From positions 40,486,001 through 40,550,000 of the forward strand of contig OX597836.1 in the NCBI GenBank assembly GCA_951406725.2: a DNA stretch of 64,000 bases, given 5' to 3'. Below, one piece after another: positions 1 to 58,513 of the stretch. The notes under the pieces were generated by a model. It did not search any database, was not told the origin of the DNA, and saw nothing but the letters and a program-made list of their open reading frames with translations. The stretch is from Octopus vulgaris. Its lineage: Eukaryota. Every line of letters starts with the position of its first letter. The stretch's first letter is position 1. The translations under genes and the position numbers were made by a program.

Positions 1-151
1 AGCAGGGTTTGCCACCATCCCCTGCTGTCGCCTCGTGGAGCTTTAGGTGTTTTTGCTCAACAAACACTCACAATGTCTGGTCTGGGGATCAAAATCGCGA
101 TCCTACGACCACGAGTCCGCTGCCCTAACCACTGGGCCATTGCGCCTCCAC
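1..151 (-). mobile_element. SINE family A (tRNA-derived head), cut by window edge
   Basis: Reverse complement starts GTGGAGGCGCAATGGCCCAGTGGTTAGGGCAGCGGACTCG with A-box/B-box-like motifs; same head at 10871, 11938, 15181 and 52172. Confidence 0.85.
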
Positions 152-536
152 ATTTATATGTATATGTTTGTATGTATACGAGCGTGTATGTGTTAGAAAT
201 AGAAGGGAGAGAGAGGAGATAGATAGATCGAGAGAGAGAGAGAGACATATAGTGTGAGAGAAGAGGAGGGAGAGTGAAATGGAAAGACGATGTATGACGA
301 AGAAGGCGGTATATAATAACTAAATGACCAGCAGCGAAGACCTAGTTATTAACTAGGTTCAACGACTCGCGTCAGCAATAAGCGTCAATAAAAAGTTTCA
401 GTAACAATATTTAGTTGTTAAGATCAATATCCAAAGTGTCTTTCTTAGAAAATCGGTTTCCCAACATGCAATTAACCATTCTTTAATTATGTATTTACAG
501 AAATTATAAAAAATAATCTTAAGGTTGGCGTTAATG

Positions 537-2502: not shown

Positions 2503-2761
2503 TTAGTGATACCAATTCGTAGTACCGCCTTAACGTATAGACACACTTCGCAGTTAGCCCGTGGACCTCTGGCATTTAAAGGACCTAAAAATGATCCATG
2601 CGTGTTTTGTCCTCATTGTGGTTTCTCGGTAGGTCACGTGCTGTTTTAATAAGTCATGCTCACATCCATATTGCTTTTGATGGCCTGAGCACTCACGAGA
2701 GGAGTCACGTGGTAAAGTGAACGGTAGTAGTAGTAGTAGTAATGTATGTTGATGTTTTCCA

Positions 2762-3149
2762 ACACAGAGAGGACAAACAAGGACAGACAACCGGATTAAG
2801 TCGATTACATCGACCCCAGTGCGTAACTGGTACTTATTTAATCGACCCCGAAAGGATGAAGGAAAAAGTCGACCTCGGCGGAAATTGAACTCAGAATGTA
2901 ACGGCAGACGAAATACCTATTCCTTTATTACCCACAAGGGGCTTAACATAGAGGGGACAAACAAGGACAGACATAGGTATTAAGTTGATTATATCGACCC
3001 CAGTGCGTAGCTGGTACTTTATTTATCGACCCCGAAAGGATGAAAGGCAAAGTCGACCTCTGCGGAATTTGAACTCAGAATGTAACGGCAGACGAAATAC
3101 CGCTAAGCATTTCACCCGGCGTGTTAGCGTTCCTGCCAGCTCGCCGCCC
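2762..3149 (-). mobile_element. SINE family B, 2-unit tandem
   Basis: One head (GGCGGCGAGCTGGCAG) followed by two body units. Confidence 0.85.
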
Positions 3150-7252: not shown

Positions 7253-8218
7253 GCGAGCTGGCAGAATCGTTAGCACCCCGGGCGAAATGCTTTGTGGTAT
7301 TTCGTCCGCCTCTGCGTTCTGAGTTAAAATTCCGCCGAGGTCGACTTTGTCTTTCATCCTTTCGGGGCCGTTAAATTAAGTACCAGTTACGGACTGGGGT
7401 CGATATAATCGACTTAATCCGTTTGTCTGTCCTTGTTTGTCCTCTCTGTGTTTAGCCCCTTTTGGGTAGTAAAGAAATAGGTATTTCGTCTTTATGTTCT
7501 GAGTTCAAATTCCGCCGAGGTCGACTTCTGCCTTTCATCCTTTCGGGGTCGATAAATTAAGTACCAGTTACGGACTGGGGTCGATATAATCGACTTAATC
7601 CGTTTGTCTGTCCTTGTTTGTCCTCTCTGTGTCTAGCCCCATGTGGGTAGTAAAGAAATAGAAATAGGTATTTTGTCTGCCGCTACGTTTTGAGTTCGAA
7701 TTCCGCCGAGGTCGACTTTTTCCTTTCATCCTTTCGGGGTCGATAAATTAAGTACCAGTTACGGACTGGGGTCGATATAATCGACTTAATCCGTTTGTCT
7801 GTCCTTGTTTGTCCTCTTTGTGTTTAGCCCCTTGTGGGCAATAAAGAAATAGGTATTTCGTCTTTACGTTCTGAGTTCAAATTCCGCCGAGGTCGACTTC
7901 TGCCTTTCATCCTTTCGGGGTCGATTAATTAAGTACCAGTTACGGACTGGGGTCGATGTAATCGACTTAATCCCTTTGTCTGACCTTGTTTGTCCTCTCT
8001 GTGTTTAGCCCCTTGTGAGTAGTAAAGAAATAGGTATTTCGTCTGCCGCTACGTTCTGAGTTCAAATTCCGCCGAGGTCGACTTTTCCTTTCGTCTTTTC
8101 GGGGTCGATTAAATAAGTACCAGTTACGCATTGGGGTCGATGTAATCGACTTAATCCCTTTGTCTGTCCTTGTTTGTCCCCTCTGTGTTTAGCTCCTTGT
8201 GGGTAGTAAAGAAACAGG
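7253..8218 (+). mobile_element. SINE family B tandem array: one head plus 5 body units of ~180-185 bp
   Basis: Units restart at GGTATTT near 7296, 7480, 7667, 7852 and 8033. Confidence 0.9.
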
Positions 8219-8412
8219 TTATCAGAACCATAATTCCTGTATTTAGTTACTCGGTAAATGCTGCTGTTATGCCGTGCTCATTTTCGACGTAACTGGTGGC
8301 TGGTTTTATTATGTCCGATCAGGACAACCACGGAAACTGCCGAAAGAATGAACCAGTTTTTCACCGTTTTTCGAATACGAACAGGAAAATTACATTGTGT
8401 AACAAAATATTT

Positions 8413-16520: not shown

Positions 16521-16943
16521 GGGATCTTCTCGGTTTGAACGGCAGTTTTTAACGTAATTTCTAGGTAACTAAAAAATTTTTAACTTCGTATACTGGTAGA
16601 ATGTGTTTATAAAACATCTTTTTCTCTTGGCTTTATTGAAAAAATTCTATAGTTTGTAAGATATTTGTTTATTTTTTTCTTCAATTTCTGCAATTTCAAC
16701 CAATCAATGACGTCCATTGAGGTAAAAAAAAAACATTCTGTGCCGTATGAATATGTCCCTCGTTTAAGAAACAGATTGGGTTTATTTACATTTGTAAAGA
16801 AAAACAGATACCCTTCCCCCCATCCCTAACCCTAACCCTAAAACAGATTGAAATGCAATAGATCGATACTAGGGTCATAATTATGGGTGACAATTTCATA
16901 TGACACCGCTAGAAAAAACTGCCGTTCAAACCGAAAAGATCCC
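16521..16943. mobile_element. MITE with ~29 bp TIRs, 6-bp TSD and internal (CCCTAA)n
   Basis: GGGATCTTCTCGGTTTGAACGGCAGTTTT ... AAAACTGCCGTTCAAACCGAAAAGATCCC; AGTTAA on both sides. Confidence 0.85.
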
Positions 16944-16960
16944 AGTTAAGCACTAAGGTT

Positions 16961-17439
16961 AAGCATCTCGAAAGAGTCCAGAAGCTGGCTACCCGCATGG
17001 TTCTTGGTCTCAAGAATTTGTCTTATGAAGAAAGGCTGAAGACGCTCGACCTTTATTCTCTAGAAAAACGACGACGTCGTGGTGATCTCATTCTTGCTCA
17101 CAACATCATAAGCGGAAAGTGTAACCTCTCGAAAGAGCTGTTCTTCACTCCTGCTCCAGAGCGTCGGCTGCGGGGTCACTACGAAAAGCTCTTTCTGCGA
17201 CGATTTCATCTCAATCGAAGGAGAGGGGCTTTCTCCGTCCGGGTTGCGGATCCGTGGAATAAGCTGCCAGACGAGATGGTGAAGATGCCGACGACCGCTC
17301 GGTTCAAAGTCTCCCTTGACCTCAAGTGGCCTGAACTCTTTACATGAACACCACCCTGCACTTAACTCCATGTCCCCCTACATGGCCTTGCTTTTTTGCT
17401 TTTTGAGCCAAAAAATTAACTAACTAACTAACTAACTAA
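16961..17439 (+). mobile_element. CR1-clade LINE 3' end (ORF2 C-terminus, 3' UTR, (TAAC)n tail)
   Basis: LERVQKLATRMVLGLKNLSYEERLKTLDLYSLEKRRRRGDLI...FSVRVADPWNKLP is a typical CR1 C-terminus. Confidence 0.9.
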
Positions 17440-24551: not shown

Positions 24552-24677
24552 ATCAATTTATTCGGTCAAGTATTAGGGATTGTGTACTTTTAGATATGCA
24601 TTTTACGCGTGCATGTACAGGCATATCAAAGTGCGTGTGTGTGTGTGCGTGCGTGCTTGGACTTTCCTCTGTCTCCT

Positions 24678-24713
24678 ATTTCTGAAGAGGAGCTTTGCTC
24701 GAAACGTAAAACC
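24678..24713 (+). ncRNA. Minimal type I hammerhead-like motif in a short element abutting (TA)n
   Basis: ttt-CTGAAGA-G-GAGC ttt GCTC-GAAA-CG-TA-aaa; core intact, stems I and III very short. Confidence 0.6.
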
Positions 24714-24821
24714 ACATTTCTTTCCTTCCCTGAGTGTCTGTTAATACTCTTAATATGTGCCACGTCCTCGCGTTGTTGATTTTTTTTCTTGTGTCTGCTT
24801 TTCATTTTTGTGGGGATTTAC

Positions 24822-24877
<56 letters not shown>

Positions 24878-25372
24878 TGAATGTGTGTGTGTGTGTGCAT
24901 ATTATATCTACACATACAGACATAGATGTATGTATATGTATTTGTGCGGCCATGAAGGATTATAGTCGAACAAAACGACCCTAGGACATTTTTTAAACCG
25001 AGTATTTATTCTATCGGCAAAATAGACTAGGCTTGTTCGACTACAATCCTTCAAGGTGGTGCTCCAGTATGTCAGCAGTAAAATTACTGAAACAAGTTAA
25101 AGATAAAAGATAAAAGCTATATATATATATACGTATATATACATACAAACACACACACACACACATACAAGCATATATGTGTACTTGCGTACAAAGAGTG
25201 CTCAATAAATCATTGAGTAAGTATAGGTTAAGGGTCTGAACGGGCTTTACTCAGGGTTACATAGTAGATACGATGGCACGTGCCTAAAATTTCGGACGGC
25301 TATAGCGAGCTCTGTGCTGCGTTCAACTTAAAATGCAGTTTCTTATTTGTCCTTACTGAAATAAGTACCGGT

Positions 25373-25422
25373 CCTTACTGATGAGTCAACGGAAATTGCC
25401 GAAACTGACTGTCAGTATAAGG
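25373..25422 (+). ncRNA. Type I hammerhead ribozyme, canonical core
   Basis: CCTTA-CTGATGA-GTCAA cggaaa TTGCC-GAAA-CTGAC t GTCAG-TA-TAAGG; all core nucleotides present, GUA site, predicted cleavage after 25417. Confidence 0.85.
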
Positions 25423-25789
25423 GATTCTCGAACGGTGATTTTGAACGATTGCGTTCCCTATCGGTATATATGTGTACATATATATGCTTTGATTACAGCA
25501 TTAGAGCAATTTAGCTCTTATTTCTAGCAATCATGGTGCTTCTAGCACCCTAGTCACATTTAGTGAAGAGACGATTATATATATATGTAATCGTCTCGTC
25601 ACTTAATGTGACTATATATGTGTATATATACATACATATATATATATATGTGTGTGTATGTGTGTGTGTGTGTATGCATGTATGTATGTATATATATATA
25701 TATACATAATATATAAATGCATACATCTATATACATATACATATATATGTATATATACACACATATACATATATATATGTATACATATA

Positions 25790-31883: not shown

Positions 31884-32163
31884 TGCGTGCGTGTGTGTAA
31901 GTGTGTGTGTGTCTGTAGGATATTTACTCTTAGCCGACATGACTTTAGTGTGAAATTATAGTCACCTTATAGTGTGACATTAATTCTGAAACCTGTCACC
32001 CGAAGCCCTGTATCGTTATCACAGTATAACAGATGAGTAACCGAGAAAGGTTATGAGAATTCTGATTCTAGAGTGTCACTGGAGCGATGATGGAAAGATA
32101 TGCAGCGATATCCATTTGGGAGATACTAAATGGGCGAAAACAGAATCCTAGCACCGACAGTTA

Positions 32164-32977
32164 TACCTATTTCTTTATTACCCACAAGGGGCTAAACACA
32201 GAGGGGACAAACAAGGACAGACATAGATATGAAGTCGATTACATCGACCCCAGTGCGTAACTGGTACTTAATTTATCGACCCCGAAAGGATGAAAGGCAA
32301 AGTCGACCTCGGCGGAATTTGAACTCACAACGTAACGCAGACGAAATACCTATTTCTTTATTTCCCACAAGGGGCTAAACACAGAGGGGACAAACAAGGA
32401 CAGACATAGGTATTAAGTCGATTACATCGACCCCAGTGCGTAACTGGTACTTAATTTATCGACCCCGAAAGGATGAAAGGCAAAGTCGACCGCGGCGGAA
32501 TTTGAACTCACAACGTAACGCAGACGAAATACCTATTTCTTTATTTCCCACAAGGGGCTAAACACAGAGGGGACAAACAAGGACAGACATAGGTATTAAG
32601 TCGATTACATCGACCCCAGTGCGTAACTGGTACTTAATTTATCGATCCCGAAAGGATGAAAGGCAAAGTCGACCTCGGCGGAATTTGAACTCACAACGTA
32701 ACGCAGACGAAATACCGCTAAGCATTTCGCCCGGCGTGCTAACGTTTCTGCCAGCTCGCTTTATTACCCACAAGGGGCTAAACACAGAGGGGACAAACAA
32801 GGACAGACATAGGTATTAAGTCGATTACATCGACCCTAGTGCGTAACTGGTACTTAATTTATCGACCCCGAAAGGATGAAAGGCAAAGTCGACCTCGGCG
32901 GAATTTGAACTCACAACGTAACGCAGACGAAATACCGCTAAGCATTTCGCCCGGCGTGCTAACGTTTCTGCCAGCTC
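32164..32977 (-). mobile_element. SINE family B tandem array, 4 units (2 with head, 2 head-less; 183 bp period)
   Basis: TACCTATTTC at 32164, 32347 and 32530; units nearly identical. Confidence 0.9.
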
Positions 32978-41176: not shown

Positions 41177-41678
41177 GGCGAGCTGGCAGAATCGTTAGCA
41201 CGCCGGGCGAAATGCTTAGCAGTTTTTCGTCTGCCGTTACGTTCTGAGTTCAAATTCCGCCGAGGTCGACTTTGCCTGTCATCCTTTCGGGGTCGATAAA
41301 TTAAGTACAAGTTACGCACTGGGGTCGATATAACCGACTTAATCCGTTTGTCTGTCCTTGTTTGTCCTCTCTGTGTTTAGCCCCTTGTTGGTAGTAAAGA
41401 AATAGGTATTTCGTCTGTCGTTACGTTGTAAGTTCAAATTCCGCCGAGGTCGACTTTGCCTTTCATCATTTCGGGGTCGATAAAATAGGTACCAGTTGAA
41501 CACTGGGGTCGATATAATCGACTTAATCCGTGTGTCTGTCCTTGTTTGTCCTCTCTGTGTTTAGCCCCTTGTGGGTAGTAAAGAAATAGGTATTTCGTCT
41601 ACCGTTACGTTGTGAGTTCAAATTCCGCCGAGGTCGACTTTGTCTTTCATCCTTTCGGGGTCGATTAAATAAGTACCA
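41177..41678 (+). mobile_element. SINE family B tandem: one head plus 3 units (last truncated)
   Basis: AAAGAAATAGGTATTTCG junctions near 41400 and 41585. Confidence 0.9.
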
Positions 41679-44583: not shown

Positions 44584-44629
44584 TTGATGCTGAAGAGAAG
44601 GTAATTGCTCCGAAATGCATGCACATCAA
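44584..44629 (+). ncRNA. Degenerate type I hammerhead motif
   Basis: ttgatg-CTGAAGA-GAAG gtaattg CTCC-GAAA-TGCATG-CA-catcaa; 6-bp stem I, U16.1 replaced by C. Confidence 0.55.
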
Positions 44630-44705
44630 TCTCGGTAGAGGGCACTCGGATCTGACTTGATGTATTTATACCTTTTTCGCATCTGACGCAAGTAACACTT
44701 TATGT

Positions 44706-44850: not shown

Positions 44851-45378
44851 GTCCGCCGTGTATATTTTGTCCGCCCTTTCGTCTCTTCTACCTTTGTTCT
44901 TATTTGGTCATTTTGTATATGTCCGCAGAATTTTCAGCAGAATTTTCCCCCACTTTCGTCTCTTCTCCCTTTGTCCTTATTTGGTCATTTTGTATAATAT
45001 GTCCGCAGAATTTTCAGCATAATTTTCCCCCACTTTCGTCTCTTCTCCCTTTGTTCTTATTTGGTCATTTTGTATAATATGTCCGCAGAATTTTCAGCAG
45101 AATTTTTCCACCCTTTCGTCTCTTCTCCCTTTGTTCTTATTTGGTCATTTTGTATAATATGTCCGCAGAATTTTCAGCAGAATTTTTTCACCCTTTCGTC
45201 TCTTCTCCCTTTGTTCTTATTTGGTCATTTTGTATATGTCCGCATAATTTTCAGCATAATTTTTTCACCCTTTCGTCTCTTCTCCCTTTGTTCTTATTTG
45301 GTCATTTTGTATAATATGTCCGCATAATTTTCAGCATAATTCGTCCGCCCTTTCGTCTGTTCTCACTTTGTCCTTATT
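44851..45378. repeat. 80-bp minisatellite, ~6.5 units
   Basis: GTCCGCA recurs at 44921, 45001, 45081, 45161, about 45238 and about 45318. Confidence 0.95.
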
Positions 45379-45392
45379 GGTTCCTTTTGCAG

Positions 45393-55479: not shown

Positions 55480-56813
55480 CCAGTGTTTAAGTATGAATTT
55501 TCTATAATGCATACAAGGGTGGAGATCTCTGTACTTGCATTAAAATACAGGCTTGGTTTCTTCATGACTCTAAGGGTTATACATTTTCTATTGTACAAAG
55601 ATTGCATCTTTTGGTAGCATTCATCTATGATCTGAAATTTTTGATAATCTTCCAGCTAATTTCAAATTCTGTACCATTTTCTTTAAATTGCCGGTTGAAG
55701 CTTGCATGTTCTGTCATGTATGTTGGGGTTTTTTTTTCGATATTACTGAGTAATGCGCATACTTCGAAAGATGTAAGGGTTACCTTCTGCGTAACTATGA
55801 TGGTTGTTTAAAAATTTTTCATCATGGGCAGACGATGCAACCTGATGAATTTCCAAATCGTTGTTTGGATTCTGCGCTAGTAATTACAGTTGCACTTCTT
55901 TCCAGAAAATGTAATATATTTATGAACCTTTAGTAAACTTGCCCACATTTCTTATAGGGGTATTCTTTATTTTGGAGTTATCAACCCAAAATCACTATGG
56001 TCCGTTATTAGTAAAGAAGAACTGGAAGTACTCTGTTATTATTTAGTCGCGTGGTGATGGTTACTTTTATCTATTAATGTGAGGTGCTGTGTGGGGTGTA
56101 TTATGGAATTTCGTCGAGATAAGGGCAAAATCCATTCTTCAGGGTTAACCGGTTAACCTTTCTGCTAACTCCTCATTAAAATTCTTCAGTAAATTAACCA
56201 ACGAGAAAATATCCTTACGGATATCATGCTGAAATTAATCTTCATAATGGCTGGATTTGAAATAAAAAGTGGAAACCGAAGACCAGATCTGCTCCAGTGA
56301 TGTTGACATTATCGAAAAAAGCGCATCGCTTTTCTTTAGGGCTGGTGTAGCTAATGAATAATATTAAGTTTCTCCGAAAGACAAAGATCACAATACATCG
56401 ATCAATTCGTGAATGCTGGCGTTTTATCCAGTGTTATACAAGTAGTAGTTGTGGGGTTTTTTATCTCTCAATCACCAAATATATTTCGAAAATGTGGTGT
56501 TTTCGAGTGTGGCTGATATAATGAACTTTTGTGTTGACGTAGAATTCTTATGAATGAGCGTTCTGTTAATACAGTATATCTTGCCGATCCATTTTTAGTG
56601 GAGATCACCACTCGGTAAAGAACGCTTTTTTCTTCTTTTTTTTAAGCATTTTTCTTTCTTGTACGATAGCTCTATGTTACAGTATCTCCATATCGGTTCC
56701 TTTTGCACTTTGTCTGCAATAAATTTACATTGTGACTCATAGTGAGATATGACAATTTTTTACATACAACTATAGATTACCTTGATATTGTGTCTGGGAA
56801 ATAAAGCATATTC
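55480..56813 (-). pseudogene. Decayed Penelope-like element C-terminal region with two GIY-YIG endonuclease-like modules
   Basis: My translation. Module 1: LFPRHNIKVIYSCM, SVLYRVVISTKNGSARYTVLTERSF..QHKSS, ENTTFSKYIW*LRDK, CDLCLSEKLNII. Module 2: KKCNC, QFKENGTEFEISWKIIK..ATKRCNLCTIE, CMHYRKFIL. Confidence 0.7.
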
Positions 56814-58056: not shown

Positions 58057-58513
58057 TTAGTTAGTTAGTTAATTTTTTGGCTCAAAAAGCAAAAAGCAAG
58101 GCCATGTAGGGGGACATGGAGTTATGTACAGGGTGGTGTTCATGTAAAGAGTTCAGGCCACTTGTGGTCAAGGAAGACTTTGAACCGAGCGGTCGTCGGC
58201 ATCTTCACCATCTCGTCCGGCAGCTTATTCCACGGATCCGCAACCCGGACGGAGAAAGCCCCTCTCCTTCGATTGAGATGAAATCGTCGCAGATAGAGCT
58301 TTTCGGAATGACCCAACAGCCGACGCTCTGGAACAGGAGTGAAGAACAGCTCTTTCGAGAGGTTACACTTTCCGCTTATGATGTGAGCAAGAATGAGATC
58401 ACTACGGCGTCGTCGTTTTTCTAGAGAATAAAGGTCGAGCGTCTTGAGCCTTTCTTCATAAGACAAATTCTTGAGACCAAGAACCATGCGGGTAGCCAGC
58501 TTCTGGACTCTTT
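58057..58513 (-). mobile_element. CR1-clade LINE 3' end, same family as 16961-17439
   Basis: ORF 58140-58487 nearly identical; (TAAC)n tail; TTAAGTTT repeated on both sides. Confidence 0.9.

Follow-up and report, generated by a model that had tools for sequence, protein, structure and literature searches.

A truncated copy of a dispersed 354-nt repeat, likely a PLE-moved non-LTR retrozyme, whose hammerhead ribozyme is predicted to be misfolded in Octopus vulgaris

A hammerhead ribozyme motif lies within the 64,000-nt stretch of the Octopus vulgaris genome analyzed here (the window), and it raises the question of what kind of element carries it and whether it still cleaves RNA. The initial annotation had described a near-canonical, probably active ribozyme in a unique island of ~270 bp, possibly a non-LTR retrozyme monomer. 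All of the parts named for the type I motif were found at the places given for them, and the type I core (CUGANGA, GAAA, and NUH, with three stems of which stem I is open) is complete in the window copy (table 1). The sequence likewise upheld the position proposed for the cut, and the single mismatch in stem II is a U-C at positions 10.2-11.2 (T25386 and C25399). A 36-nt core pattern had a single occurrence in the window and none in 100 shuffles; thus, the hammerhead is not a chance match. A 48-codon frame begins at an ATG within this core. In an Rfam search of the window, nothing reached a gathering threshold, and the sub-threshold matches were to RAGATH-1-hammerhead (20.3 bits; cut-off 56.3) and Hammerhead_3 (15 bits; cut-off 48.5). 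The model suggested as a check, Hammerhead_1, which we take to be RF00163, gave 0 matches at E<=10 for the window copy; because an intact copy of the family described below was also missed by this model, the test was uninformative.

The supposed uniqueness of the island was contradicted by a genome search with 25185-25460, which found 306 candidate places, of which 40 were scored and gave 43 matches; the 42 matches other than the locus itself all fell within 25364-25459. By contrast with that part, 25185-25368 gave 1 match, namely itself, in a search that skips very common words, and is single-copy. Alignment to 21 genomic copies extended the homology 3' of the annotated interval to ~25579, and the hammerhead proved to be the 5' end of a truncated copy. 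This copy is a 56% fragment of the unit rather than a monomer, and it lies downstream of most of the interval originally assigned to it; the remaining unit positions, beyond 305-354 and 1-157, were found nowhere else in the window. Over 25368-25566, the copy is identical to the family consensus in 175 of 199 columns (88%; 12% diverged), with a 5-nt insertion following at 25567-25571, and its 3' end, at a (TA)n run, is the family's proximal 3' end. Our favored reading, which we consider probable, is that 25368-25579 is a truncated copy of a dispersed 354-nt repeat, likely a non-LTR retrozyme moved by Penelope-like elements (PLEs), and that its ribozyme is misfolded and inactive as predicted from folding.

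Table 1. Coordinates of the features discussed (window positions; a dot marks features given without a strand).
Feature	Position	Strand	Basis or remark
Single-copy flank in the first annotated interval, outside the element	25185..25341	.	1 match, itself; 0 hits among all fetched loci
Probable 5' junction scar: extra 11-mer 25349-25359 inside a 7-bp inverted repeat, 25342-25348 / 25359-25365	25342..25365	+	
Truncated copy of the 354-nt retrozyme unit	25368..25579	+	Unit 305-354, then 1-157, numbered from the cut site
Type I hammerhead motif, intact core	25373..25422	+	Sequence; family covariation
Stem I, CCTTA / TAAGG	25373-25377 / 25418-25422	+	Sequence
Predicted inactive 12-bp rod, core buried	25376..25417	+	25376-25382 with 25411-25417; 25384-25388 with 25406-25410
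Core CTGATGA	25378-25384	+	Sequence
Stem II, GTCAA / TTGCC	25385-25389 / 25396-25400	+	Loop CGGAAA
T at stem II position 10.2; breaks stem II, creates competing helix	25386..25386	+	
Core GAAA	25401-25404	+	Sequence
Stem III, loop CTG	25404-25408 / 25412-25416	+	Sequence
Stem III as a 13-nt near-palindrome, one central mismatch	25404..25416	+	Hairpin -2.4 kcal/mol; self-duplex -16.5 kcal/mol
GUA triplet	25415-25417	+	Nominal cut site after A25417
(TA)n landing site, then a tail-to-tail inverted duplicate (27 bp, 2 mismatches) of 25551-25577	25576..25614	.	

We addressed the nature of the repeat family through its genomic copies. Exact searches found a 31-nt pattern 63 times and a 23-nt pattern 137 times genome-wide, with 0 hits for reversed-pattern controls; the hammerhead part had 306 candidate places and the 3' part 1,934-2,314 candidates, which puts the copies with a hammerhead in the hundreds and the candidate places of the family at about 2,000. 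The 68 unique loci analyzed were retained from 91 fetched after 23 had been dropped (the window itself, same-place duplicates, and four of five near-identical composites). In these loci, the unit is 354 nt long, circularly permuted, and non-coding, with 36% GC, a longest stop-free frame of 60 codons in the circular unit, and one type I hammerhead per unit, and its size falls within the non-LTR retrozyme range of 150-450 nt with GC below 45-50%. The circular fold of a 352-nt draft consensus was strongly self-paired (z -5.7; 63% paired), and 0 of 60 shuffles were as stable. A second subfamily (L032, L042, L048, and others) has a 355-nt unit that shares 91% identity with the first and in which stem I pairs are swapped. 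Since copies showed 82-94% identity to their subfamily consensus and 88-96% to their nearest neighbor (63 copies), the sampled family is old. Seventeen of the 68 loci exceeded one unit, up to 893 nt, and four (L018, L023, L040, and L048) were two-hammerhead tandems, the maximum for any fetched locus. The search for tandem arrays that had been recommended yielded none: exact patterns found 0 core pairs at 338-366 nt spacing genome-wide, Tandem Repeats Finder reported no array at the window locus, and the copies are dispersed rather than arrayed. By the features that can be tested in sequence, namely a 354-nt non-coding, self-paired unit with a covarying type I hammerhead, the family is a non-LTR retrozyme, as had been suspected.

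Comparison with described animal retrozymes gave a similar picture. The retrozymes of the mussel Mytilus galloprovincialis, as far as they are described in the available text of PMC7229834, likewise have non-coding units with a type I hammerhead, low GC, and extensive self-pairing, 350-390 bp long as against 354 nt in the octopus family, and both show two ribozyme subfamilies, copies of more than one unit, and co-existing PLEs. Unlike the mussel retrozymes of that text, the octopus copies are nearly all dispersed, old-looking stumps with no intact tandem array found. With the Xenopus retrozymes, the octopus family shares a proposed PLE dependence and many dispersed monomers according to the accessible part of 10.64898/2026.07.22.740005, where 8 of 9 tested Xenopus dimers did not cleave. 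Literature searches returned no description of a cephalopod retrozyme, and the supplement of PMC7229834 may list one; Repbase and Dfam lay outside their scope.

The family's ribozyme was evaluated in 59 hammerhead rows, obtained from 60 by dropping L035 and L071, the 5' parts of which are replaced, and adding the window copy. In these rows, which were selected on the hammerhead, the core was intact in 44, and 85.8% of stem cells were paired compared with 21-42% in slid controls. More importantly, compensatory stem I swaps distinguish the two subfamilies (UA32/AU19 and CG31/UA15); these swaps reflect essentially one evolutionary split rather than many events. Because of these compensatory changes, we concluded from the alignment that the family's ribozyme was real. 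The distal part of stem I in the family is formed by an upstream arm that pairs with CTCGA (70% of cells paired in the 59 rows), and the window copy begins just past this arm, with 1 of 5 distal pairs left. The extension TACCG/CGGTG attributed earlier to stem I does pair in the computed fold (25366-25370 / 25433-25437), but it differs from the family's own arm; on this sequence comparison, since the copy starts past the family arm with only that one pair left, the extension is a chance substitute for the arm that was lost.

Stem III suggested how the family's hammerheads may have worked. In 18 of the 59 rows, stem III and its loop form a perfect palindrome, either 12 or 14 nt long and with four different sequences in all, and the self-duplexes are predicted to be far more stable than the hairpins. 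The earlier view that stem III allows monomeric folding was borne out insofar as the hairpin can form in the window copy, at the energy listed in table 1, but the near-palindrome there and the palindromes of the family point to the use of dimers. A palindromic helix III is a known mark of dimer-assisted cleavage (PMC4209133, available text), and by this analogy the family's hammerheads likely used dimers, though monomers can fold. As in the dimer-forming metazoan type I hammerheads described there, the octopus family has a palindromic stem/loop III and a conserved G10.1-C11.1; beyond the core pair, its stem III has 3-4 Watson-Crick pairs compared with 1-2, and therefore folding as a monomer would also be possible in octopus.

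Whether the window copy itself still cleaves was assessed from its predicted folding. The base at 10.2 is G in 51, A in 6, and T in 2 of the 59 rows; the T of the window copy was also present in locus-spanning contigs from two public runs, one of which may be the source of the assembly. With T at 10.2, 25384-25388 become complementary to 25406-25410, and in consequence an intrinsic alternative helix would grow into a 12-bp rod that was seen in both MFE and centroid folds in five sequence contexts of 50-371 nt. In these contexts, the active fold was computed to lie 15.5-17.4 kcal/mol above the ensemble (about 15-18 kcal/mol overall), compared with 6.7 kcal/mol for the window copy given the family base at 10.2 and 4.7 kcal/mol for the consensus, so that even the consensus is predicted to sit off its active fold. 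The window copy ranked 57th of 59 by this penalty, for which the median was 8.05 among the 44 core-intact rows, and the computed probability of its stems II and III was ~0. Because such calculations take no account of tertiary contacts, Mg2+, or assistance from proteins, they rank copies and give no rates, and the hammerhead of a PLE needed protein according to the available text of PMC11167929. On the folding predictions, the description of the ribozyme as probably active is contradicted, and we predict that it is inactive, locked in a misfold.

The initial annotation envisaged a copy that remains able to cleave and would trim a + strand transcript, possibly as a co-opted element; we consider this unlikely. 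Such activity would be in keeping with the intact core, stem I, stem III, and G10.1-C11.1, with the alternative stem I extension that can form, and with a hammerhead carrying 1 change in 50 nt compared with 24 in 199 overall at a locus that was picked for its hammerhead. It is opposed by the folding penalty and rank given above, by the loss of four of the five distal stem I pairs of the family, and by the solitary state of the copy, as the window contains no second copy of this motif with which a cis dimer could form. Nor was a host gene located, since Pfam gave hits for 0 of 52 frames of at least 62 codons at 12-40 kb, a screen that short exons would escape, and none for the frame at 16913-17344. 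A contig from a public run of presumed RNA origin spans 25240-25431 with 1 difference and ends 14 nt past the cut site, and is therefore evidence of neither transcription nor cleavage; the summed contig depths at the locus are not copy numbers.

We next considered how the copies were inserted. Among 99 segments in the 68 loci, 47 3' ends fell in a distal window (unit 190-220) and 19 in a proximal window (143-166), both windows being chosen after seeing the data, and 11 of 99 5' ends fell in the same windows. The 3' ends of the family thus concentrate at two points, ~157 and ~212 nt beyond the cut site and ~55 nt from each other, whereas its 5' ends are variable. In a second sample of 60 copies, collected with internal queries that disfavor proximal ends (90 loci, 63 unique, 3 query sources removed), 51 ended at unit 190-220, and for 33 of the 51 a microsatellite lay at this end; the 5' ends spread over 500 nt, and 26 of 60 copies cross the cut site. 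The 68 loci also contained 21 head-to-head inverted pairs, of which 8 joined a distal with a proximal end, with 0 distal-distal and 0 proximal-proximal pairs (permutation p 0.011 and 0.0055 for the mix of arms), and no adjacent tail-to-tail pairs. In the second sample, 0 of 17 distal-ended copies with an inverted partner were paired with a distal one, and 9 partners ended at 137-157 (4 of the 17 being re-finds). AT-rich or microsatellite targets bordered 39 of 66 clustered 3' ends, compared with 8 of 33 other 3' ends and 14 of 99 5' ends, and no poly(A) tail was found at family 3' ends. L025 resumes after ~1 kb; TA-rich spots may attract later insertions, and some proximal ends may have this origin.

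The 5' parts of the insertions bear on the template. Long copies, in the 17 loci that exceed one unit, run back into another 354-nt unit and never into an ORF, which by analogy fits the circular or multimeric RNA template proposed for retrozymes (PMC7229834, available text). More 5' ends than expected lay 4-19 nt beyond the cut site (14 against ~5, for 41 at risk; p 2e-4 for a single bin picked afterwards from nine), an excess that could represent run-off from cut RNA or polymerase stalling in the long stem. A precise pile-up at the cut site itself was considered and rejected, the peak being at +10 to +19, not at +1.

This anatomy was compared with that of insertions of EN+ PLEs. PLE insertions are 5'-truncated, with an inverted 5' copy, a one-end tail, and a microsatellite bias (PMC8557442, PMC3846280), and the tail reflects two internal starts of reverse transcription on uncut RNA (PMC11167929), as described in the available text of these sources. 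In the same accounts, to which the comparison is limited (PMC3846280, PMC8557442, PMC11167929), the octopus family likewise matches EN+ PLEs in 5' truncation, a head-to-head inverted arm, an optional one-arm tail (~55 nt, compared with 30-40 bp in PLEs), two 3' end sites, microsatellite or AT-rich targets, and reverse transcription across an uncut hammerhead. It differs in that its unit has no RT/GIY-YIG ORF and its hammerhead is canonical, whereas that of PLEs is minimal. Because the two 3' ends, the one-arm tail, the inverted arms, and the microsatellite targets match, we consider by this analogy that the family was likely mobilized by a PLE from circular or multimeric RNA. Evidence for PLEs in Xenopus consisted of pLTR homology and co-occurrence in the accessible part of 10.64898/2026.07.22.740005, whereas in the octopus family it consists of insertion anatomy, with no pLTR homology found.

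Spread by LINE machinery or by DNA-level satellite amplification, with no PLE involved, would account for some of these features. LINE-like fragments are present in the window, and variable 5' truncation and 5' inversions are also known from LINE insertions. However, the inverted arms of the family duplicate the 3' end and do not carry the RNA sequence further, the 3' ends lack poly(A) as noted above, and dispersed rather than arrayed copies disagree with satellite amplification. In addition, two 3' ends, the longer on one arm only, are described as PLE-specific in the available text of PMC11167929 and PMC8557442. We therefore regard this alternative as very unlikely and retain mobilization by a PLE.

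The junctions of the window copy were examined in the same terms. The 11-mer duplicated upstream of the hammerhead, as reported earlier, is present at 25349-25359 and 25371-25381, and its extra copy lies within the 5' scar of table 1, which we infer to be a templated insertion made during integration or repair; other copies carry similar short duplications at their 5' junctions, for example L036 and L038. At the 3' side, the 27-bp duplicate arose locally, since the private insertion of the window copy occurs in it too. The window copy has no head-to-head inverted arm.

We also searched for a PLE partner of the family. PLE-type ORFs were abundant, with 21,618 and 12,538 candidates in two families that we call Neptune-like and Poseidon-like; these clade names are our assumption from sequence motifs, with no hit in Pfam. 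The young Neptune-like family (L016:241-1185 (-), L092-L121), with 21,618 candidate places at 93-96% protein identity, was likely recently active judging from its sequences; its open frames reach 1,214 codons, and the C-terminal part had no Pfam hit. The Poseidon-like family (12,538 candidates) is old. Among 60 loci of the two families with 1.5-kb flanks, no PLE sharing the unit sequence was found, and only 4 loci already known as retrozyme loci matched the unit. Both tested families bear hammerheads of the minimal type, different from that of the retrozyme, and no RT plus GIY-YIG ORF was found within the 354-nt unit.

These results also bear on the possibility that the repeat is the pseudo-LTR end of an undiscovered autonomous or longer PLE, its copies being 5'-truncated stumps. 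All of the insertion hallmarks are PLE hallmarks, and Xenopus retrozyme families match pLTRs (10.64898/2026.07.22.740005, accessible part), as such an origin would have it. However, every long-enough copy (17 of 68 loci) re-enters the 354-nt unit without an ORF, the circular unit is open for no more than 60 codons, and the hammerheads of the two tested PLE families are different and minimal; we thus consider a pseudo-LTR origin quite unlikely, and a non-LTR retrozyme moved by PLEs the better account.

For such a retrozyme, we proposed the following cycle. Tandem master copies would be transcribed, and the hammerhead, likely aided by dimerizing through its palindromic stem III, would cut the RNA to monomers that circularize. 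A PLE reverse transcriptase/endonuclease would nick TA-rich DNA, and copying would begin internally, either ~157 or ~212 nt beyond the cut site; the reverse transcriptase would then travel around or along its RNA template, passing through the ribozyme, and halt at random, and a head-to-head inverted arm would often be added. For the window copy, copying would have started at the proximal site, covered ~207 nt, and stopped 50 nt past the cut site with loss of the distal stem I arm, after which the copy would have decayed and G10.2U would have locked the core in the rod.

Taken alone, the window locus matters little, being probably a dead copy of the repeat. Arguments about which autonomous element mobilizes animal retrozymes still rest on co-occurrence and pLTR homology, and dependence on PLEs was proposed for them in the available text of PMC7229834; the insertion scars of the octopus family suggest PLEs and define two exact RNA positions at which a PLE protein would be predicted to prime. 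Literature searches returned no account of tail scars, two 3' ends, or inverted arms on retrozymes. More tentatively, the ~2,000 stumps may be a fossil record of the retrozyme cycle, in which a PLE enzyme primed two fixed sites on an RNA without detectable shared sequence and used both uncut or circular templates (read-through in 26 of 60) and hammerhead-cut linear templates (the 5'-end excess). If true, this would be insertion-level evidence that PLEs move animal retrozymes in trans and that the ribozyme cut in the germ line.

Other features were observed in the window and in the fetched loci. A minimal PLE-type hammerhead, unrelated to the retrozyme, lies at 24655-24815 (+), with its core at 24682, in a pLTR-like fragment, and similar sequence was present in 14 of the fetched loci, four of them loci of Neptune-like PLEs. 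Two other places, 44590-44647 (+) and 56081-56189 (-), have hammerhead-core-like spacing; they failed the stem II filter and had no match among the fetched loci. In five near-identical composites (L004, L005, L007, L008, and L010; G000 C31 three times, C7, and C6), a retrozyme stump is inserted into a Poseidon-like PLE fragment, antisense to it, in the interval that separates its ORF end from its minimal hammerhead; these composites represent either a duplicated segment or a PLE with a retrozyme passenger. Tandem arrays of a ~184-bp unit, which may resemble an octopus tRNA-derived SINE, occupy 2761-3101, 7315-8219, 32163-32977, and 41225-41678, and an ~80-bp unit is arrayed in 6.5 copies with 92% matches at 44864-45389. 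Two near-identical open frames, 16913-17344 (+) and 58143-58511 (-), had no Pfam hit and resemble what we take to be the C-terminal end of a CR1/L2-type LINE protein. Finally, an exon with a PCMT-family methyltransferase domain (L003:196-660 (-)) lies ~0.8 kb from a retrozyme copy in the opposite orientation, and this copy is probably intronic.
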